DNA from: a virus | DNA length: 5,887 nt | Strand: one strand, 5' to 3' | IMG/VR virus record: IMGVR_UViG_3300029609_000116 | Span: 1-5,887 of that record | In this document: piece by piece, positions 1 to 5,887 of the stretch | Layout: each line of letters opens with the position of its first letter | Position numbering within the stretch: position 1 is the stretch's first letter | Notes under the pieces: generated by a model | Told to the model about the DNA's origin: nothing | What the model saw: only the letters and a program-made list of their open reading frames with translations | The model's database searches: none | Translations under genes and position numbers: made by a program

Positions 1-594
1 CTTCCCCTCGCTTTCGGCGTATCCTTGGCCTATTCCTTTTGAGGTCCACACCTTGGTGACGAAGTCCGGGTGTTTTTCGTCGATTTTGAATATGTATTTT
101 ATGATGTAATTTACGGTCTTCTCATTCACAAACTCTCCGTAGTCTACAAATCCGTAATTCCATACCTCTTCCACTTCTTCTTTGCTTTTCTCCGTCCACA
201 ATATTCCGTGTAAATGCATTCTTTGCGAGTCGTTTCCGCCTAATTCGCATATCAAAAAATGTTTTATGCCGCACTTGTATTTTTTGTACCACCGTTTCCT
301 GAATAATTCGATGCTTCGACTTGCTACGTTCAAGGCTTCTTCTTGCTCGAATTTTAATAGTGATTCGTCACTGTACGTCATTGTCACGAAGTGTGCGTTT
401 TCGGGATGATTTTTCAATTCGATCATCAGTCTCACTCGCCACTCGTTTGCTCGTTTTTTTCGACACTCGATGCATTTTCCGCATCCGATTGCTACAACCT
501 TTTTTCTCTCGTCGTCGCAATACGGCGTATGTCCGCCGTTTTTCTTGTTCGGCAGATACCTCTTGTTTCTTATTAATCTGGGATATAAACACAT
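1..594 (-). CDS. Replication initiator protein (microvirus VP4 / protein-A-like), N-terminal 165 codons; the ORF continues in frame across the circular junction into 5887..5450
   Basis: Minus-strand ATG at 594-592, then an open frame down to base 100. Because 1-99 = 5789-5887, the same frame runs on through 5887..5450 (checked codon by codon; the ORF track shows only the distal part from an internal GTG). The translation begins MCLYPRLIRNKRYLPNKKNGGHTPYCDDERKKVVAIGCGKCIECRKKRANEW, a Cys cluster typical of microvirus Rep N-termini. FVTMTY at 373-390 resembles rolling-circle motif I. RMHLHGILW at 196-222 is an HxH motif II. NYIIKYIFK carries a YxxKY paired-tyrosine motif III that straddles the repeat boundary (Y at 106-108, K at 97-99, Y at 94-96 = 5882-5884). 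The in-frame TAA at 742-744 is the VP2 stop, so 594 is the first ATG of the frame. Bases 1-99 are a redundant copy of 5789-5887. Confidence 0.88.
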   Translation of the reverse strand, partial: MCLYPRLIRNKRYLPNKKNGGHTPYCDDERKKVVAIGCGKCIECRKKRANEWRVRLMIELKNHPENAHFVTMTYSDESLLKFEQEEALNVASRSIELFRKRWYKKYKCGIKHFLICELGGNDSQRMHLHGILWTEKSKEEVEEVWNYGFVDYGEFVNEKTVNYIIKYIFKIDEKHPDFVTKVWTSKGIGQGYAESEGK

Positions 595-617
595 GTCGAA
601 GACACCATTAATCGGTC

Positions 618-669
618 GGAGCACGGCGGAGGCCGATATAGGCCGGCCGTAAGGCTGATAGGCCGTATG
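618..669. promoter_or_regulatory. GC-rich palindrome / direct-repeat cluster in the VP2-Rep intergenic spacer (candidate origin or Rep control region)
   Basis: cggaggccgatataggccggccgtaaggctgataggccgtatg contains the 8-bp palindrome GGCCGGCC (641-648) and the potential hairpins GGCC-gatata-GGCC and CGGCC-(12 nt)-GGCCG (644-648 / 661-665). The direct repeat ATAGGCCG occurs at 638-645 and 658-665 (20-nt spacing). The region is sharply more GC-rich than its flanks. It lies between the VP2 terminator and the Rep ATG (594). Confidence 0.4.
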
Positions 670-713
670 AAAAACCTTAATAAAAAGGAGGATTGGGCTT
701 GCCCTTTCCTCCT
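670..713 (-). terminator. Intrinsic (rho-independent-type) terminator immediately downstream of VP2
   Basis: On the minus strand, 29 nt after the VP2 TAA, the sequence reads AGGAGGA-aa-GGGC-aa-GCCC-aa-TCCTCCT (686-713 on plus: aggaggattgggcttgccctttcctcct). That gives a 7-bp outer stem plus a 3-4-bp inner G/C stem. It is followed directly by TTTTATTAAGGTTTTT (revcomp of 670-685). Confidence 0.6.
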
Positions 714-741
714 CGTATAAGACTTTTTCGGAAATTTCGTA

Positions 742-1818
742 TTATTTCGTTAGCCCTCTTGCGCCCGCTGCGGCGCCTACGGTAACTCCGATTGCTTTCA
801 GTATCCGTTCTCCCAGATCCATCCAGAACTTCGGAGTCTTCTCTATCCCGTACTCATATTGCGTTGTCAGCTCCCTCCACGCTTGTTGCGCTCGATTTGT
901 TGCCGCATTTTCGATGGCGGCTAATCCGGAGTTTTTTGCGGCTTCGGCCTGTATTAAGTTGCTTACTGCTTCGATGAATAGATACTTTTTCCGTTCCGTA
1001 TTTAATTCGGCCAAGGCCTTTGAATTTTCACTTTGACCTTTTGCCGCCTCCGATTCCGATAGAGTCTTTATGATCTCTGCCGAATCTTTTCTGGTCGGGA
1101 GTCTTGTCGAGTCGATTCGATGATCTCCGTAGAAATCGTCGTAAACCTCGACGCCCCACCGATCGTTGTCCTCAATGGCCATATCCTCGAACATTTTCCG
1201 TACATTGTCGATGTACTGACTTTTCCCTCGTTGGAATATTTCCTTCACTCTGCCTTCTCTCATCTCTCGCTCCGTTTGAGCTTCCTCGGCCGTCTTTGAC
1301 GCTGACGCCTTGTTTTGTTCGGCCTGACTGTCCAGTACCTCTCCTTGTTTTTTCAGGTTCGCTAAATTCAATCCCAGTTCGATCTGACTGGCTCGCGTAG
1401 CCCATTGCTTGGCCGGCGAATCCGCCTCTCCCGCATTAGCCCCGTGAGCTTGCGCCATAGGACCCTGAGTCATGAATCCGCTGCCTCCTCCGGAGCCGCT
1501 TCCGCCATACATAAGCCCGACTGAAAGTCCGGCTTCTTCCATTTGTTTCCGCATGGCTGCATAGGATTGGTCTTTGTAAGATCTTTCGTATGCCTCCATT
1601 TGCCTTTTAAACGCGTTTTCCGCCGCTTTTTCGCCCCAACGGTAGTTGGACTCGTTCGCAGCCTCGTTTAGCTTAATTTGGTTCTCTAATTGTCTTTTGG
1701 CTCGTTTCCTGTTTCCGATTCCGAATAATCCGAGGATGCCGCCTCCGGCGCTCGCAATTTGACCCGCGGATTGAGCGCCCGCACTTATACCGCCCAGTGT
1801 TGATAAGAGTGCTCCCAT
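742..1818 (-). CDS. Minor capsid / DNA pilot protein (microvirus VP2, phiX174 H-like), 358 aa
   Basis: ORF of 358 aa. The N-terminus MGALLSTLGGISAGAQSAGQIASAGGGILGLFGIGNRKRAKR is Gly/Ala-rich and hydrophobic. It is followed by long Q/A/E/K-rich predicted helical (coiled-coil-like) segments and a second Gly run (GGSGSGGGSG). This is the usual architecture of microvirus pilot proteins. It sits downstream of VP1 as expected. The A-rich leader ...aaaaaaaagtgaaaaATG has no strong SD. Confidence 0.8.
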   Translation of the reverse strand: MGALLSTLGGISAGAQSAGQIASAGGGILGLFGIGNRKRAKRQLENQIKLNEAANESNYRWGEKAAENAFKRQMEAYERSYKDQSYAAMRKQMEEAGLSVGLMYGGSGSGGGSGFMTQGPMAQAHGANAGEADSPAKQWATRASQIELGLNLANLKKQGEVLDSQAEQNKASASKTAEEAQTEREMREGRVKEIFQRGKSQYIDNVRKMFEDMAIEDNDRWGVEVYDDFYGDHRIDSTRLPTRKDSAEIIKTLSESEAAKGQSENSKALAELNTERKKYLFIEAVSNLIQAEAAKNSGLAAIENAATNRAQQAWRELTTQYEYGIEKTPKFWMDLGERILKAIGVTVGAAAGARGLTK

Positions 1819-1825
1819 TTTTCAC

Positions 1826-1842
1826 TTTTTTTTAAAAAAAAA
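1826..1842. promoter_or_regulatory. Self-complementary T8A9 tract in the AT-rich leader upstream of VP2
   Basis: ttttttttaaaaaaaaa lies 8 nt upstream of the VP2 ATG in minus sense. It is embedded in a 60-nt AT-rich stretch (1819-1880) that includes atatatgtataat. This is a likely VP2 promoter / leader region. The sequence would bend strongly and melts easily. Confidence 0.3.
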
Positions 1843-1884
1843 TCAAGATACATTCTTGTTATATATGTATAATCGTCTACCGCA

Positions 1885-1926
1885 GTGAACTTCTGTAAGT
1901 TACCCCCCGCTAGGCGGGGGGTTCAC
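1885..1926. other. Nested stem-loop with a perfect all-G/C 8-bp stem, in the ORF108-VP2 intergenic spacer
   Basis: ccccccgc (1903-1910) / tag / gcgggggg (1914-1921) is a perfect inverted repeat. It is flanked by gtgaa (1885-1889) ... ttcac (1922-1926), which is also an inverted repeat, with an asymmetric internal loop ttctgtaagtta. On the minus (mRNA-sense) strand no U-tract follows it, so it is not a canonical intrinsic terminator. Confidence 0.6.
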
Positions 1927-1953
1927 TCATGACGATTTACGAAGGCCATTGCC

Positions 1954-2280
1954 CTATTTGTCCGGATCGACCTTGTTCTCGATTTCGGACAATTCTTGAG
2001 CCTTTTCGACAGGCTTCAAGACATCCATCCTCTGAGCCTCTTTGGCCATTTCGCTTTCTTGGACTTTCGACATCGCCTCTCTTGCTATTTCGAATCTGTC
2101 CGTTCGAATGTCGAATGCCGGAAGCACTCCGTCTGTTTTCTTTGTATAGACGATGGGAATGTCTCCTGCGAGCGGTTCGTTGGTTTCCGTAACTCTCCTT
2201 AACTTAACCTCGAGGCCCTCTGCTTCGTAGGTTGCGTCGACCCTTAACGTAGGTCTGTACGTATAAATCGGCTTTCTCAT
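1954..2280 (-). CDS. Hypothetical protein, 108 aa, between VP1 and VP2; N-terminal half with mixed hydrophobic/charged character, C-terminal acidic Lys/Glu-rich tail
   Basis: Its ATG at 2280-2278 lies only 4 nt after the VP1 TAA (2287-2285): TAA-AAAA-ATG, which is tight coupling. It is on the same strand as every other gene. The protein MRKPIYTYRPTLRVDATYEAEGLEVKLRRVTETNEPLAGDIPIVYTKKTDGVLPAFDIRTDRFEIAREAMSKVQESEMAKEAQRMDVLKPVEKAQELSEIENKVDPDK has varied, protein-like composition. I see no recognisable motif. Confidence 0.55.
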   Translation of the reverse strand: MRKPIYTYRPTLRVDATYEAEGLEVKLRRVTETNEPLAGDIPIVYTKKTDGVLPAFDIRTDRFEIAREAMSKVQESEMAKEAQRMDVLKPVEKAQELSEIENKVDPDK

Positions 2281-2284
2281 TTTT

Positions 2285-4435
2285 TTACAAATTAGGAATT
2301 TCCCGGGCGCTCTTTACGCGGCGACCGATCACGTCGAATCCGATTTGTATCCAAAAATTTTTCGCGTCCAAATCGGAGTTTGCAAACGCTTTATTGAATA
2401 TTTGCGGATCGATATAGGTTGTGGCATCCTTCAGTTTCGGATCGTTAACCACTTCGTAGACCCTATTGAAGGCCATATACTCTAACGGTTCCCCTGCAGC
2501 GAAATCTCCGTATGTTTCGTTGATCGTAGTAGTGTATTCCGTCCACGCCGGTTGTTTCCCTACGCTAAAGTCCGTTGTCTTGTAATTCGCGCTGATTCCC
2601 CATGCTCGACCGTTCATTTCCTGAGATAAGAGCTCTTGAAATCCGATCTGATCGAGATTAGGTTTGTGGAAATCGTTCATCGTTTGGATTCTTGTCCACC
2701 ATTTGTTGCCTTGCGAGTAGTCTACTCTTGGTACGATTGATCCGAGAATCATGATCAGCGACGGTTCTTCGCAGCGGATTTTAATATTCTTCCCTCCTCT
2801 TTTCGATGTCTCGCGGCCTCTTCCTGCGAGTGATCCGAGTGGTTCCTGTCCGGTGTTTCCGCTTTCGAAGGCTGCCGTACTGACAACCTCGTCGAATACG
2901 ATTTCCGATGCATAACCTCCGACATATATCGGGCTCTCTGCAGCGCGACTCACTCGGACTCCGAACACCGCCTCCTGCCAATCCCTGTATGAACCGCCCG
3001 ATACGGCGATCCGATTAAGCATGTCGTAGACTTTTTTCTGCAAGATAAGCGCATCCATGGTGAGCACTCCGCTTGTCACGTCGACCGAGGTTATTTCGTT
3101 GATGCCGTTCGTTCCGTCTATCCACTCGGTATTCAGCCAATTGTTGAAACGGTCGGATAGGTACGTCCGGATTCCCAATCCGCACTGAGATGTGGTTCTC
3201 CCGTAGATCTGGACTCCGCTTTGAGTCTTGAGTGTATCGTACAGCGGAGCCAAGAACGGGTATTTTGTCGCACTCGCAGTGGAACTCGGTAGTATGAACT
3301 CTTCTTGTGACGGTGTCGCTAGAATTTCTTCTTTGAGATTGTCTATCGTGTTCAGATCGAATTTTTGCAGCTGAATGTCGTTTTTCGTGTTGAAACCGGT
3401 GATTTTATCGATTTCTTTGTTTTCATCGATAATTACTGGAGTTTTACCTGCCGTGCTTGGTATGGCATATTGATTCGCCGGAATACTGAATGTGAATCTT
3501 ACGGTCTTTCTATTGACTTGGCTGATCTCGTTTGCTTTTGAGAGTTCTCTGCTTAGAGGAGTTGCCGTACTGTTGATGGCCGGCAGTTTGAGATAGACGT
3601 TCTTGCCGATCTTTTCGGCATCTGCCGCCCCTGAGAATTGAATTTGGACGGATAGGCTTGTGCCCGTAATGGGTATTTTCTCGGTAACATTGAGTACTGT
3701 GCCCTGATTTGAGATCGGGTTTTGCGCCGACGCGTTGTAGATGATCACTCCGTTGCTCAATTTCGGACTGGGCCCGATAACGAATCCGATTTCTTCTTGT
3801 TTGTTGGCGTAATAGTTTTTATAGATGTCCCAGTATGCCAATTCGAAGAGAGCCTGCCTTTTGATATGCAGTTCGGCATTGGTCGCGTTGATAGGTAGTC
3901 CTCTTTTCCCGAGATATGCGGGAAGTGAAGACGGATTGTAGTTATTTGCGTTTTTGATGAGATACTCGTCGATTTTTTCATTCCCGACATAACTTTCCCT
4001 AGTTACCGGTTCCCATAGTTTCGGCAGCTTGATATTGGCCATTTTCAGTCCTACGCCCAGCGCATTGTTGTGAAGCGCCGACATGTATAGTCGTATGGGC
4101 ACGCAGAATACGTCCACTTGGAATTTTGCCGATCCGAATATCGGTCCGTTGGTAGGTAATGTTCGAATGATCGATTCGATCTCGTTGATGTAGAATGTGT
4201 CGCCTGTCAGTCCTATTTCGCAGTAGTAAGGTACGACTGTTGCGAAAGATTGATCGGTTCTTACGATTTTCGACAGGTTATTTGAACTTCGGCCGAAATT
4301 TTCGAGTTCCACGGCCATTTTTTTTCCGGCGCCCAGTCGTTCGCCTCCGAGGGTCTTTTTCATTTCTTTTCGCTTTTTTGTTTTTTGATGATATGTGTTG
4401 TGATTAACGATACTGTAACCAATAGGTCGTTCCAT
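2285..4435 (-). CDS. Major capsid protein (microvirus VP1 / phiX174 F-like); 716 aa from the first ATG, probable true start at ATG 4363 (692 aa)
   Basis: The long minus ORF contains the conserved microvirus MCP N-terminal block ...FGRSSNNLSKIVRTDQSFATVVPYYCEIGLTGDTFYINEIESIIRTLPTNGPIFGSAKFQVDVFCVPIRLYMSALHNNALGVGL. This corresponds to the RSxFDLS...LPGDTF...D.F.VP.R..W pattern of F/VP1 jelly-roll capsid proteins. The length is in the range of large-MCP lineages such as Alpavirinae. There are three in-frame ATGs, at 4435, 4363 and 4318. ATG 4363 overlaps the TGA of the upstream ORF as ATGA and follows an A-rich leader (caaaaaacaaaaaagcgaaaagaa), so I favour it. Confidence 0.92.
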   Translation of the reverse strand: MERPIGYSIVNHNTYHQKTKKRKEMKKTLGGERLGAGKKMAVELENFGRSSNNLSKIVRTDQSFATVVPYYCEIGLTGDTFYINEIESIIRTLPTNGPIFGSAKFQVDVFCVPIRLYMSALHNNALGVGLKMANIKLPKLWEPVTRESYVGNEKIDEYLIKNANNYNPSSLPAYLGKRGLPINATNAELHIKRQALFELAYWDIYKNYYANKQEEIGFVIGPSPKLSNGVIIYNASAQNPISNQGTVLNVTEKIPITGTSLSVQIQFSGAADAEKIGKNVYLKLPAINSTATPLSRELSKANEISQVNRKTVRFTFSIPANQYAIPSTAGKTPVIIDENKEIDKITGFNTKNDIQLQKFDLNTIDNLKEEILATPSQEEFILPSSTASATKYPFLAPLYDTLKTQSGVQIYGRTTSQCGLGIRTYLSDRFNNWLNTEWIDGTNGINEITSVDVTSGVLTMDALILQKKVYDMLNRIAVSGGSYRDWQEAVFGVRVSRAAESPIYVGGYASEIVFDEVVSTAAFESGNTGQEPLGSLAGRGRETSKRGGKNIKIRCEEPSLIMILGSIVPRVDYSQGNKWWTRIQTMNDFHKPNLDQIGFQELLSQEMNGRAWGISANYKTTDFSVGKQPAWTEYTTTINETYGDFAAGEPLEYMAFNRVYEVVNDPKLKDATTYIDPQIFNKAFANSDLDAKNFWIQIGFDVIGRRVKSAREIPNL

Positions 4436-4668
4436 GTCATATTTTCGGGTTTACAGTATTCTCTGGCTTCCTCTTTTGTCTGAAAGGTTCGGTTCGATAT
4501 GCGATTTTTCCCTACGGTCACAACGTATCCTTGTTCTTTGTTGCCGAGGATTGAAAACGGCGACTCTTCTATTCGCTCGCATTCGATGACATCCGTTTGG
4601 TCTTTCGGCGATAGTGAGATGGTTTCTCTTTTCATGTCTTCATTTTTTAATGGTTCCGACTTGTTCAT
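4360..4668 (-). CDS. Hypothetical protein, 102 aa (91 aa if started at the internal ATG 4635)
   Basis: Minus ORF MNKSEPLKNEDMKRETISLSPKDQTDVIECERIEESPFSILGNKEQGYVVTVGKNRISNRTFQTKEEAREYCKPENMTWNDLLVTVSLITTHIIKKQKSEKK. Its TGA (4362-4360) overlaps the VP1 ATG 4363 as ATGA. The ATG at 4668 overlaps the preceding ORF by 29 nt. The alternative ATG at 4635 lies 4 nt after that ORF's stop. It belongs to the same-strand tiled gene array. Confidence 0.5.
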   Translation of the reverse strand: MNKSEPLKNEDMKRETISLSPKDQTDVIECERIEESPFSILGNKEQGYVVTVGKNRISNRTFQTKEEAREYCKPENMTWNDLLVTVSLITTHIIKKQKSEKK

Positions 4669-4855
4669 AGGTGATTTTCGTTACAACGGTGTCTCCGTTT
4701 TTAAACGTCGACGCCGACTGACTCACGAATTGTTTGGCGTTGCAACTCGTAAGTAACACGATTGCTGTTGCACAGATGACTGCGACGATCGCAACGATCG
4801 TTTTGTTCTTCCCCCAGCCGGTTGACTGAAGGAAGTTTTCGTTTTGCTTACTCAT
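4640..4855 (-). CDS. Small predicted lipoprotein / membrane protein (about 71 aa): signal peptide with lipobox LLTSC, then a 33-aa mature peptide
   Basis: From ATG 4855-4853: MSKQNENFLQSTGWGKNKTIVAIVAVICATAIVLLTSC NAKQFVSQSASTFKNGDTVVTKITYEQVGTIKK. The N-region carries Lys residues, the h-region is 17 hydrophobic residues, and then L-T-S-C fits the [LVI][ASTVI][GAS]C lipobox. The ATG overlaps the TGA (4854-4852) of the upstream 70-aa ORF as ATGA. The ORF track extends this frame to ATG 4993 (117 aa), but the extra 46 residues (MSRFEQCRLQNRVGFHREESRPSGPNTRIHRSCDQKIRCAIKSISN) look like low-complexity off-frame translation. Confidence 0.55.
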   Translation of the reverse strand: MSKQNENFLQSTGWGKNKTIVAIVAVICATAIVLLTSCNAKQFVSQSASTFKNGDTVVTKITYEQVGTIKK

Positions 4856-5064
4856 GTTTGAAATAGATTTAATTGCACACCGTATTTTCTGATCACACGA
4901 ACGGTGTATACGTGTGTTTGGCCCTGATGGTCGACTTTCTTCTCGGTGGAAACCGACACGGTTTTGTAGACGGCATTGTTCAAATCTTGACAAGTCTGAA
5001 CTACTCCGTCTTCGTCAATTACCGTTTGCCTGTGGTAGATCGTTCTGCTCTGTGAACATTCCAT
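4852..5064 (-). CDS. Hypothetical protein, 70 aa
   Basis: Minus ORF MECSQSRTIYHRQTVIDEDGVVQTCQDLNNAVYKTVSVSTEKKVDHQGQTHVYTVRVIRKYGVQLNLFQT with a true ATG at 5064-5062. Its stop is ATGA-coupled to the lipoprotein ORF. The composition is protein-like and alternates hydrophobic and polar residues. It overlaps the preceding 60-aa ORF by 50 nt in another frame. Confidence 0.42.
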   Translation of the reverse strand: MECSQSRTIYHRQTVIDEDGVVQTCQDLNNAVYKTVSVSTEKKVDHQGQTHVYTVRVIRKYGVQLNLFQT

Positions 5065-5197
5065 GTCGCCTCATTTTTTCCAGTGTGGTTTGCTCGGCAA
5101 ATTCTATGTTCCATAGTTGTTCGAGCGTCTTCTGCTTTTCCAGTTGAATTTTGGTAAGGCGCTCCTTGAGCGCCTCACCAAGTGCTTGCTTATTCAT
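5015..5197 (-). CDS. Hypothetical protein, 60 aa, predicted helical / coiled-coil-like
   Basis: Minus ORF MNKQALGEALKERLTKIQLEKQKTLEQLWNIEFAEQTTLEKMRRHGMFTEQNDLPQANGN from ATG 5197-5195. Heptad-like spacing of L/I residues in a K/E/Q-rich background. Its start overlaps the TAA (5192-5190) of the upstream 82-aa ORF by 8 nt (ATGAATAAG), consistent with coupled translation. Confidence 0.42.
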   Translation of the reverse strand: MNKQALGEALKERLTKIQLEKQKTLEQLWNIEFAEQTTLEKMRRHGMFTEQNDLPQANGN

Positions 5198-5438
5198 AAA
5201 ATACCTGCGATTTCCATATTTCGGCGTCTATTTCGTATTTGCGGTGTACCAGTCGGATGCTCGCATAGAAGTAGCCGTCTTTTAATTTTCCCTTTGACAG
5301 GCATTGGTGCTCGGCCGGAGCAATATCTGCGTATGCAACGGTTTCTTTTGCCCGATCCATAGCGCTTTTCAGTACGGGAGTCGTCTTGACGAGATACTTG
5401 CCTTCTCTTGTCACTTTCAGAACTTGGTAGATTTTCAT
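5190..5438 (-). CDS. Hypothetical protein, 82 aa, first gene downstream of the replication gene
   Basis: Minus ORF MKIYQVLKVTREGKYLVKTTPVLKSAMDRAKETVAYADIAPAEHQCLSKGKLKDGYFYASIRLVHRKYEIDAEIWKSQVFYE. The ATG at 5438-5436 lies 11 nt after the Rep TAA (5452-5450). Same strand and protein-like composition. Function unknown. By position it could be a VP5/VP3-class small protein, but there is no sequence support for that. Confidence 0.48.
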   Translation of the reverse strand: MKIYQVLKVTREGKYLVKTTPVLKSAMDRAKETVAYADIAPAEHQCLSKGKLKDGYFYASIRLVHRKYEIDAEIWKSQVFYE

Positions 5439-5449
5439 GGCATTGTTTT

Positions 5450-5887
5450 TTAAGATTGTGACTCAAATATATTTTTATTATTTAATTTTTCCAAATTTTT
5501 CTTATAGGATTTTTTTATCCAAACATCGGAACTATAACCTAAAGATTCCGTTCTCTCTTGATGATATTTTAAACACCCGAAATACAATCGCATGCCTTTT
5601 TCATCCGATATATCGATTTTCTCCCCGCACACATATCTTTTTTTCTGATCGAGTTTTTGTAACCACAGCTCCTCCCGTTGGTCCTCGTCGAATATCTTGT
5701 TTCGGAGGTAAATCGGTAAGGCTACTTTCAGTCCGGATGGCATTTTGTAGTAATCTTTTGTTGAAATTCCTCTGAATTTATTAAAACACTTCCCCTCGCT
5801 TTCGGCGTATCCTTGGCCTATTCCTTTTGAGGTCCACACCTTGGTGACGAAGTCCGGGTGTTTTTCGTCGATTTTGAATATGTATTT
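5450..5887 (-). CDS. Replication initiator protein (VP4 / protein-A-like), C-terminal 145 aa; same gene as feature 1..594, joined across the circular junction
   Basis: The minus frame is open from the window end through to the TAA at 5452-5450. Translation reads ...KYIFKIDEKHPDFVTKVWTSKGIGQGYAESEGKCFNKFRGISTKDYYKMPSGLKVALPIYLRNKIFDEDQREELWLQKLDQKKRYVCGEKIDISDEKGMRLYFGCLKYHQERTESLGYSSDVWIKKSYKKNLEKLNNKNIFESQS. The frame is exactly contiguous with codon 100-102 of the window start. The whole Rep is about 310 aa. Confidence 0.88.
   Translation of the reverse strand, partial: KYIFKIDEKHPDFVTKVWTSKGIGQGYAESEGKCFNKFRGISTKDYYKMPSGLKVALPIYLRNKIFDEDQREELWLQKLDQKKRYVCGEKIDISDEKGMRLYFGCLKYHQERTESLGYSSDVWIKKSYKKNLEKLNNKNIFESQS
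5789..5887. repeat. 99-nt exact terminal redundancy (copy of bases 1-99): circular genome closure / assembly overlap
   Basis: The base-by-base comparison is identical: cttcccctcgctttcggcgtatccttggcctattccttttgaggtccacaccttggtgacgaagtccgggtgtttttcgtcgattttgaatatgtattt occurs at 1-99 and at 5789-5887. The unit genome is therefore 5,788 nt. The repeat falls inside the Rep coding sequence, so it is not a biological LTR or att site. Confidence 0.9.

Follow-up and report, generated by a model that had tools for sequence, protein, structure and literature searches.

Does an unusual arrangement of genes in a small gut virus record point to a new kind of microvirus, or to a familiar kind seen against the wrong references? 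The question is raised by the virus record IMGVR_UViG_3300029609_000116, of which positions 1 to 5,887 were analyzed; we refer to this whole stretch of 5,887 nucleotides (nt) as the window. An earlier note on the same DNA had described a complete circular microvirus genome with a large major capsid protein and a non-canonical gene complement that could not be matched to a named group. We find that the window very probably represents a complete circular human-gut microvirus genome of the proposed subfamily Alpavirinae, in the sense of Roux et al. 2012 and Alves et al. 2016, lying outside the Bacteroides/Prevotella prophage subgroup; microviruses are small icosahedral phages with single-stranded DNA. 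The genome is already known: the virus has been assembled repeatedly from human-gut metagenomes, and its layout was described more than ten years ago.

Bases 1-99 of the window are identical to bases 5789-5887 in a self-comparison, so that the unit is 5,788 nt, a size that agrees with the circular genomes of about 4-7 kb typical of the Microviridae (Petitvirales). An exact 99-nt overlap is, taken alone, no more than what an assembler run at k=99 puts out, and on that ground the circle might be an assembly artefact, a chimera or a spuriously repeat-closed contig that corresponds to no real replicon. We regard this as close to negligible. Two contigs from the ENA, L004 (ERZ918370, with a 127-nt overlap) and L006 (ERZ825384, with a 55-nt overlap), hold the same 5,788-nt circle with three and four mismatches, and are opened at window positions 4614 and 1779, respectively; being opened elsewhere, both read through the 1/5788 junction of the window. 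Three assemblies from different samples, with overlaps of 99, 127 and 55 nt, thus share one circle and have three break points. The same proteins also occur on dozens of contigs of 5.7-6.0 kb, the genome is collinear over its full length with the named record Dulem virus 222, and purifying selection acts on every open reading frame (ORF). Since independent human-gut assemblies give the same circle with other break points, the 99-nt repeat is the overlap typical of a k=99 assembler working on a circular molecule and not a biological terminal repeat. The completeness that had been claimed (5,788 nt plus the 99-nt overlap) is borne out by the exact repeat and by the two independent circles, and the junction that the earlier note feared might prove unspanned is crossed by both.

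Every sizeable ORF lies on the minus strand of the window, and nine genes are found there. The description of the genome as unidirectional, with Rep, VP1 and VP2 on one strand, was therefore right, with the correction that the strand is the window's minus strand. This coding strand, which is presumed to be the packaged one, is rich in A and poor in T (A 34.8%, T 19.3%); the viral strand of phiX174 is T-rich. Measured against four close relatives, the ratio of nonsynonymous to synonymous substitution rates (dN/dS) is 0.02-0.44 across all nine ORFs, which indicates purifying selection. Scans of the window for Rfam families, tRNAs and generic promoters and terminators gave no signal above chance. 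The parts of the genome on which its identification turns are the following (protein lengths in amino acids, aa):

1-99, no strand: first copy of the 99-nt terminal redundancy, inside the Rep gene (identical to 5789-5887)
5789-5887, no strand: second copy of the 99-nt terminal redundancy (identical to 1-99); trimming it gives the 5,788-nt circle
1-594, minus strand: Rep/VP4, rolling-circle initiator, N-terminal 198 codons with the ATG at 594-592 (circular 310-aa ORF with Pfam and PHROG matches)
5450-5788, minus strand: Rep/VP4, C-terminal 112 codons and stop, continuing from position 1 over the junction (circular ORF)
2285-4363, minus strand: VP1/F major capsid protein, 692 aa (Phage_F, phrog_514, PDB and fold model)
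742-1818, minus strand: VP2/H-type DNA pilot protein, 358 aa (PHROG matches of its homologues, hhalign and phmmer; annotated as pilot in Dulem virus 222)
1954-2280, minus strand: ORF108, 108 aa, acidic (pI 5.1), a universal core gene of the clade (homologue in 70 of 70 relatives)

Closing the circle yields a 310-aa Rep ORF that spans the junction, and exactly this 310-aa protein is already present in public collections. It matches Pfam PF23343 (2.1e-13) and phrog_942 (2.9e-36), and its motifs can be read directly: a Cys-rich GCGKCIECR, motif I FVTMTY, motif II HLHGILW and motif III YIIKY, the last of which fits the two-tyrosine YxxKY pattern of the superfamily-I rolling-circle Rep proteins of the Microviridae. 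Its dN/dS is 0.04-0.09. VP1 matches Pfam Phage_F at 5.5e-14 (score 52.3 against a cut-off of 25 bits) and phrog_514 at 9.4e-42, and its profile finds the capsid protein of gokushovirus EC6098 in the PDB (8DES_A, 2e-11). An absence of profile matches had been named as grounds for giving up the identification; for VP1 and Rep such matches exist in both Pfam and PHROG. The capsid protein had been given as 716 aa, which is too long: in all homologues and with all gene callers the protein begins at M25 of that ORF, leaving 692 aa.

The case for VP2 is more indirect, and the claim that all three hallmark proteins are present holds for it by way of homologues and profile comparison, whereas Rep and VP1 are matched directly. 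Six of nine aligned VP2 homologues match the PHROG "pilot protein for DNA ejection" (best 6.5e-8), the VP2 profile aligns to gokushovirus VP2 at the AGL(N/S)..GG motif (hhalign E 4.6e-5, probability 68%), and phmmer relates the protein to the VP2 of BMV3 (4e-6). The protein has a Gly-rich hydrophobic N-terminus, a conserved AGL(S/N)xGLMYGG motif and a coiled-coil centre.

The fold of VP1 is informative with regard to both its kinship and its size. An AlphaFold2 model (predicted template modelling score, pTM, 0.75) finds gokushovirus EC6098 (2.7e-16) and SpV4 (2e-14) as its best folds, followed by the capsid proteins of phiX174, alpha3, G4 and Ebor, with no other significant fold match. Of the capsid references tested, phiX174 F stands furthest away (phmmer E 1.1; Foldseek E 1e-8 as compared to 3e-16 for the gokushovirus). 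The protein consists of a jelly-roll core and an enlarged, beta-rich, hypervariable insertion (about residues 190-420, some 230 aa) at the position of the gokushovirus "mushroom" loop. Compared to phiX174 F there are about 205 extra residues between 191 and 421, and compared to Chp2 and phiMH2K about 70-113 more residues at the same site. The insertion is the least conserved stretch of the alignment; from about residue 190 to 340 it is modelled confidently as a beta-rich domain (predicted local distance difference test score, pLDDT, 80-92), for which a fold search returned insignificant Ig-like and beta-sandwich matches only (E 0.2-0.5). By analogy with the threefold protrusions of gokushoviruses, the insertion is likely to be the host-attachment surface.

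How unusual, then, is the layout? We compared it with 70 related genomes from IMG/VR, INPHARED and ENA, across which the order recurs: the ORF upstream of VP1, VP1, ORF108, an intergenic region, VP2, Rep and small ORFs. Homologues of ORF108 occur in all 70 relatives, as already listed, of Rep in 67, of VP2 in 55 and of the ORF upstream of VP1 in 49; VP1 measures 650-690 aa across the relatives, and public protein collections hold more than 5,000 VP1 clusters of this kind. The exact VP1, VP2, ORF108 and Rep of the window are on record, with cluster mates named "MAG TPA: Major capsid protein [Microviridae sp.]"; the TPA "Microviridae sp." proteins DAW84979.1, DAH92115.1 and DAO65064.1, for instance, fall in the same 90% clusters as window proteins. 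The public copies, which include IMG/VR UViG 3300020040_000044, carry automatic annotation only, and the VP1 of the IMG/VR genome L012 is about 91% identical.

The nearest named record is Dulem virus 222 (PP511398, PP511536, PP511656, PP511718) from lemur faeces (Paietta et al. 2024, PMC11281440), a collinear circle with 87.7% nucleotide identity over 89% of the length. Its nine genes are those of the window and follow the same order (major capsid protein, 108-aa ORF, pilot, Rep and five small ORFs), with 90% amino-acid identity in VP1 and 99% in ORF108, and it shares the intergenic block described below. The two differ in genome length (5,935 nt as compared to 5,788 nt in the window), in the pilot protein (401 aa as compared to 358 aa) and in Rep, which is annotated there as 354 aa from a start further upstream, as compared to 310 aa in the window. 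Neither is the architecture new to the literature. Krupovic & Forterre 2011 (PMC3091885) described BMV1-7, Bacteroidetes proviruses that lack J/VP8, C/VP5, D, G and E and have a conserved ORF after VP1 that was predicted to be a VP3-like scaffold; in their account a longer "mushroom" insertion explains the larger BMV capsid protein, and the genome is larger too. Roux et al. 2012 (PMC3394797) added many human-gut genomes to the group; in these, VP1, VP2 and VP4 alone were recognisable, and most carried behind VP1 an ORF without assignment. What the earlier note called a "non-canonical gene complement" and a "large-MCP architecture" (MCP, major capsid protein) is thus the ordinary layout, given the identical order in Dulem virus 222, the 70 relatives and the papers of 2011-2012. 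What looks non-canonical when phiX174 or the Chlamydia phages are taken as the reference is standard for the commonest gut microviruses, and should not be flagged as novel.

For the subfamily, INPHARED holds no record labelled Alpavirinae; we rebuilt the Alpavirinae-specific VP1R4 profile (18 positions) from the supplement of Alves et al. 2016 (PMC4777721). The profile had 100% precision in its authors' tests, and its training set was the 33 alpaviruses of Roux 2012 (PMC4777721). The window VP1 reaches 11.5 bits (residues 568-584), a value in the lower portion of a clade range that extends up to 24.6 bits. BMV1-6, with protein sequences taken from Table S3 of Krupovic & Forterre (PMC3091885), score 10.4-17.1 bits and Chp1 scores 0.2 bits, and there is no match in Chp2, phiMH2K, SpV4 or phiX174. 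The profile consensus PeLDgIGmQdL equals the motif of the clade, P.LD.IGFQ[DE]L, so the clade must be well represented among the 33 training genomes. The traits of the genome agree with those of the Alpavirinae: VP1, VP2 and VP4 alone resemble proteins of other microviruses; VP3, VP5, VP8/J, D, G and E are missing; the order is VP4-VP1-VP2, with a conserved ORF directly after VP1; the VP1 insertion is enlarged; and the genome exceeds gokushovirus genomes in size. The six other ORFs have no Pfam or PHROG assignment beyond the weak match to phrog_19242 of s91/102, the ORF upstream of VP1. The genome, for which no named group had been found before, therefore very probably falls in the Alpavirinae in the Roux/Alves sense, and not in the prophage subgroup.

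Several observations weigh against this placement and the functional picture attached to it. The placement rests on one 18-position marker profile together with shared architecture. VP1 is 18-21% identical to BMV VP1, which is equal to its identity with gokushovirus VP1, and a crude neighbor-joining tree of VP1 groups the BMVs with the gokushoviruses at 76%, to the exclusion of the window clade. Rep is closer by score to the VP4 of Chp2 (24.7 bits) and of phiMH2K (23.1 bits) than to BMV VP4 (at most 10 bits). The window VP2 has no direct Pfam or PHROG match; ORF108, with no detectable similarity to known scaffolding proteins, owes its proposed role to its position; the intergenic block presented below as an origin candidate could, instead of being the Rep nick site, be the origin of the complementary strand or a module that acts as promoter or terminator; and the host evidence comes from relatives, none of it from the window genome itself. 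Two points on host and lifestyle, given further on, count on the same side.

Some of these observations might be taken to mean that the clade is a separate subfamily-level lineage, neither Alpavirinae in the prophage sense nor Gokushovirinae, in which case the earlier note would have been right to find no named group that suits it well. In the tree, which used BMV1-6, four gokushoviruses and 14 window-clade sequences, the gokushoviruses are united at 100% and the BMVs at 100% and the two are joined at 76%, with the 14 sequences apart from them and a six-taxon subclade that includes the window at 100%. A hidden Markov model (HMM) of the BMVs scores gokushoviruses at 64-134 bits and the window clade at 55-82 bits, and a gokushovirus HMM likewise scores BMVs at 58-128 bits and the window clade at 31-62 bits. 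The short Rep is closer to gokushovirus VP4, ORF108 is unrelated to both the BMV "VP3?" and gokushovirus VP3, and the window lacks a dif-like site. However, the VP1R4 consensus is the motif of this very clade, whose members outscore the founding prophages; given its training on the 33 Roux alpaviruses, the literature already places the lineage within "Alpavirinae". The topology is itself weak, since sequences that differ by about 80% give saturated distances and few taxa were included, and the group is among the most heavily sampled of gut microviruses, so that its separation would be a matter of naming rather than discovery. We consider a separate lineage of this rank unlikely. Still less probable, and in our judgment very unlikely, is that the virus is a divergent gokushovirus with an enlarged capsid insertion. 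The best structural and PDB sequence matches of VP1 are to EC6098 and SpV4, the Rep is gokushovirus-like in length and similarity, VP2 aligns to gokushovirus VP2, and Chp1 is also annotated with hairpins between VP1 and VP2; yet no homologues of VP3 (Chlamy_scaf), VP5 or VP8 were found, the four reference gokushoviruses form a 100% clade without the window, the VP1R4 profile matches the window and none of the gokushoviruses save Chp1 at its 0.2 bits, and the window genome is about 1.2 kb larger. Membership of the Alpavirinae sensu Roux and Alves is thus the reading that we retain.

The host is probably a member of the Bacteroidales, with Alistipes as the leading guess: the iPHoP prediction for Dulem virus 222 is Alistipes (98.4). 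Two relatives bear on the host and at the same time on lifestyle. The 19.5-kb ENA contig L007 (ERZ24775076), whose VP1 is 49% identical, adjoins genes for a SusC-type receptor, ArgRS and ZnuA; its flank has 56% GC as compared to 44% in the viral part, and the boundary (8955-9173) carries an exact match to the XerD arm of dif, ATTTAACATAAT. Its appearance is that of a provirus integrated at dif in a genome of the Bacteroidales, possibly of Alistipes. In L090 (IMGVR_UViG_3300007105_000184, 11.6 kb; 900-6140) the clade sequence has a truncated VP2 and stands beside two Bacteroidetes-type tyrosine integrases (Arm-DNA-bind_5 and Phage_int_SAM_5), a zeta toxin and an ATPase; this relative has either inserted into a Bacteroidota mobile element or been joined to one by mis-assembly. 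One might therefore propose a temperate Bacteroidales provirus, integrating by XerC/D at a dif-like site as was proposed for BMV1-7, of which the window would be the excised form; the perfect XerD-arm match on the bacterial-looking contig L007 and the integrase genes next to L090 speak in favor of this. Against this, the window contains no dif-like site at up to 3 mismatches to the dif consensus and no XerD arm at up to 2 mismatches, and it encodes no integrase. A scan of 185,579 representative GTDB genomes revealed no prophage copy of the clade and two free or partial contigs only, a result that also counts against the host assignment. The first of the two is a free 5.7-kb clade microvirus contig in a bacterial draft genome (L010, NZ_JACWEU010000076.1, "Acinetobacter lwoffii"), and the second is a 3.1-kb contig (L011, DWWZ01000155.1) in a metagenome-assembled genome of "Ca. 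Butyricicoccus avicola", the end of which matches the first 106 VP1 residues only; both are most likely contamination or mis-binning and so provide no host evidence. The lack of a dif-like site leaves a temperate lifestyle without support, and we judge a temperate origin of the window improbable; a lytic lifestyle is our default assumption.

Beyond placement, the intergenic element, ORF108 and a small lipoprotein are modest leads on a very abundant phage group. The first of these is the spacer between ORF108 and VP2:

1819-1953, minus strand: conserved intergenic region between ORF108 and VP2, 135 nt (reading, and folds of 53 relatives)
1853-1881, minus strand: invariant 29-nt block GGTAGACGATTATACATATATAACAAGAA (GGTAGACGATTATAC-ATATATAACAAGAA) (conservation in relatives)

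The spacer is made up, in order, of a closing stem (5' arm 1941-1931 with 1881-1867) that encloses an inner GC hairpin at 1922-1902, and of an unpaired invariant tail; a T9/A8 palindrome stands at its end, just ahead of the VP2 start. The 29-nt block is essentially invariant, occurring once per genome, on the coding strand and in the same place, even where VP1 is 45-48% identical. When 47 distinct sequences were folded with DNA parameters, the block's first 15 nt formed pairs with the beginning of the spacer (a median of 13 of the 15, as compared to 1.5 in shuffled sequences) and the last 14 nt stayed unpaired. Compensatory changes in the stem can be seen by eye (GTA/TAC to GCA/TGC, plus an A/T swap). 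The inner GC-rich hairpin is always there, with a sequence that varies by sub-clade and often with a T-run following it. A 25-nt core of the block is found in just 32 of 2.9 million IMG/VR contigs, of which 31 are microvirus-sized (about 5.3-6 kb) and the remaining one is the 11.6-kb L090; 30 of the 32 were already in the set gathered by the VP1 search. No paper containing the motif was found in the searchable literature.

We regard the 29-nt block as the best candidate for a replication origin, whether as the nick site of Rep, as the complementary-strand origin, or as both. The inner hairpin may at the same time serve as a terminator and thereby reduce the expression of VP2. In phiX174 and G4 the F-G spacer occupies a position that is paralleled by the ORF108-VP2 element, and in Chp1 hairpins are annotated between VP1 and VP2, as in the window. 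The VP1-VP2 spacers of phiMH2K (L085, 1660-1685), Chp2 (L086, 1735-1750) and Chp1 (L101, 1435-1450) hold hairpins and a CGTAG(A/G) element as well; phiMH2K has TCGTAGGACGCGACTATCAACAAAGGAG, which is loosely like GGTAGACG...TATAACAAGAA in the window. The origin-like element may thus predate the window clade.

The second lead is ORF108, which follows VP1 directly in most of the relatives and is the most constrained gene of the genome (dN/dS 0.02-0.04). Public data hold at least 6,387 ORF108 clusters, none of them with a name. Its AlphaFold2 model (pLDDT 70, pTM 0.29) is not globular and consists of an N-terminus in extended form, one short helix and, at the C-terminal end, a long one. The family has no Pfam match (21 members) and no sequence match in the PDB; hhalign gives a probability of 0.5% against gokushovirus VP3 and of 0.06% against the "VP3?" of BMV1-6; and a fold search of BFVD returned its own nameless family only. 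Homology to VP3 is accordingly rejected, since Pfam, PDB, hhalign and BFVD all failed to link it to any known scaffolding protein. An internal scaffolding protein would nevertheless suit the gene's position and general character, and from its place, which is that of VP3, we presume ORF108 to encode one.

These strands can be joined into a larger proposal: that the 29-nt block is the origin of the whole gut lineage, that ORF108 is a new type of internal scaffold, unrelated in sequence to phiX174 B, gokushovirus VP3 and the BMV "VP3?", and that the lineage possibly merits a rank separate from the prophage-type Alpavirinae. We put this forward tentatively, as a combination that we think somewhat more apt to fail than to hold. 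If it were true, the 29-nt block would be the first origin defined for microviruses other than the phiX type.

The third lead lies among the five small ORFs between Rep and VP1. These five, together with the one between VP1 and VP2, had been reported in the earlier note; all are present and under purifying selection, and their low dN/dS marks the five small ones as real genes:

5190-5438, minus strand: s82, 82 aa, pI 9.4, accessory (annotated in Dulem virus 222 and called in independent contigs; dN/dS 0.14-0.22)
5015-5197, minus strand: s60, 60 aa, accessory (annotated in Dulem virus 222 and called in independent contigs; dN/dS 0.09-0.28; no family match)
4852-5064, minus strand: s70, 70 aa, accessory (annotated in Dulem virus 222 and called in independent contigs; dN/dS 0.26-0.61; no family match)
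4640-4855, minus strand: s71, 71 aa, predicted small lipoprotein (sequence features and homologues; dN/dS 0.07-0.08; no Pfam or PHROG match)
4635 (or 4668)-4360, minus strand: s91/102, the ORF immediately 5' of VP1 (49 of 70 relatives have a homologue directly upstream of VP1)

The first four occur in close relatives only and thus make up a variable cassette; s82, for instance, has homologues in 7 of the 70 relatives, all close ones, and no Pfam or PHROG match. The s71 protein has a predicted signal peptide, a predicted lipobox LTSC and, by the same prediction, a 33-aa mature peptide. Its family shares the motif VxQS..GD[ST]..YEQxG, with homologues in L001-L003, L012, L013, L016, L020, L026, L033, L060, L070 and L077. 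When lipoprotein-like ORFs were counted genome-wide by regular expression, the coding strand did not stand out (22 genomes, as compared to 30 on the control strand), so that whatever meaning there is lies in the s71 sequence family alone. Judging by its sequence features, s71 may be a lysis or superinfection-exclusion factor, which makes it a candidate for the lysis of Bacteroidales hosts in a lineage with no recognisable lysis gene. A second type of lipoprotein was seen at the s71 position in L039-L043, L075 and L007, and gp2 of BMV1 and BMV2 (PMC3091885 Table S3) also resembles a small lipoprotein.

The fifth, s91/102, had been given as 102 aa and is probably 91 aa, read from M12 of the 102-aa ORF as the gene callers have it. 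It has a C-terminal hydrophobic helix followed by basic residues (WNDLLVTVSLITTHIIKKQK). Its match to phrog_19242 is weak (0.0014) and is its only one; no homology was detected to VP5, whose slot in gokushoviruses it occupies.

The earlier note had also found no J/VP8-type packaging protein, and we likewise detected no J/VP8-like gene in any frame of the window. The small basic ORFs in alternative frames are all interrupted by stop codons in close relatives. One of them, a basic 38-aa ATG ORF overprinted in Rep (window 484-368, minus strand, +2 frame of Rep, over the Cys-rich region), looks J/VP8-like and turns up, with start and length unchanged, in five relatives at about 50% identity in Rep. 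We rejected it as a J/VP8 gene: of 26 distinct Rep genes just 10 keep the frame open; in L013, at 86% Rep identity, it lacks the ATG and contains a stop, and in the largest sub-clade it is interrupted throughout. It is judged to be a by-product of the conserved Rep codons for GCGKCxxCR...FVTMTY. Four other basic ORFs in alternative frames were rejected too, all of them being broken in close relatives. We speculate that the conserved, basic, Gly-rich N-terminus of VP1 (residues 1-19, modelled with low confidence) takes over part of the role of J/VP8.

The pilot gene and the spacer behind it have a history of their own. Divergence from the nearest relatives is mosaic, with dS values of 1.5-1.9 in VP2, 0.18 in ORF108 and about 0.5 in Rep; as compared to Dulem virus 222 the values are 1.9 for VP2 and 0.18 for ORF108. 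The C-terminal half of VP2 (window 742-1300, minus strand, as compared to L001 3000-3750) shares only about 60% identity with its counterpart in Dulem virus 222, and about 143 nt of it are absent from the window. The mosaic dS together with this divergent half suggests recombination within the pilot gene. Downstream there is one further feature:

679-714, minus strand: terminator-like hairpin GAGGAGGAAAGGGCAAGCCCAATCCTCC, then TTTTTATT, just 3' of VP2 (reading and folding)

This hairpin is strong and nested, is also present in L012, and has an analogue in L016 and L020; from its sequence it looks like an intrinsic terminator, and a simple terminator scan missed it owing to the scan's loop limit. 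The VP2-Rep spacer as a whole was discarded as a conserved element, as it varies from 41 to 327 nt in length and shows no conservation across sub-clades.

By homology to the microvirus life cycle, the following course may be proposed. The packaged single-stranded DNA would have the sense of the window's minus strand and carry the nine genes, and host enzymes would turn it into a double-stranded replicative form. The 310-aa HUH/two-tyrosine Rep would then nick the origin, for which the 29-nt block in its conserved stem-loop is the best candidate, and so start rolling-circle replication. Sixty copies of the 692-aa jelly-roll VP1 would build a T=1 capsid, with the insertion of about 230 aa forming surface protrusions that determine host attachment. 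VP2 would serve as the DNA pilot and ORF108, to go by its position, most likely as the internal scaffolding protein; the variable five-gene cassette between Rep and VP1 would supply accessory functions, including a small lipoprotein for lysis or exclusion.

How does this virus compare with the microviruses that are better known? In the Bullavirinae (phiX174-like), F has about 426 aa and lacks a large insertion, as compared to the 692 aa of the window VP1, and the window has no Pfam matches to the D, G, J and E families. The Gokushovirinae (Chp1, Chp2, phiMH2K, SpV4 and EC6098) provide the closest solved capsids (8DES, 9CGM), a Rep of similar length with the best Rep similarity among the references tested, and a homologous VP2; both they and the window are devoid of genes for an external scaffold or spike, and both have hairpins between VP1 and VP2. 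They nevertheless form a separate clade and possess VP3, VP5 and VP8, which are absent in the window, have genomes of 4.4-4.9 kb and a VP1 of 533-596 aa, and carry a VP1 insertion about 100 aa shorter than that of the window.

The proviruses BMV1-7 have the same overall architecture as the window, with the same missing genes, an ORF after VP1, a long VP1 insertion, a small lipoprotein-like gene upstream (gp2 of BMV1 and BMV2) and a VP2 with an AGLNP-type motif. They differ in a shorter VP1 (541-613 aa as compared to 692) and a longer VP4 (497-569 aa as compared to 310), in a "VP3?" of 140-155 aa that is unrelated to ORF108, and in being integrated at dif-like attachment sites, of which the window has none. 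With the human-gut subgroups of the Alpavirinae (PMC3394797, PMC4777721) the window shares its gene order, its gut origin, its larger genome, its VP1 insertion and its VP1R4 motif.

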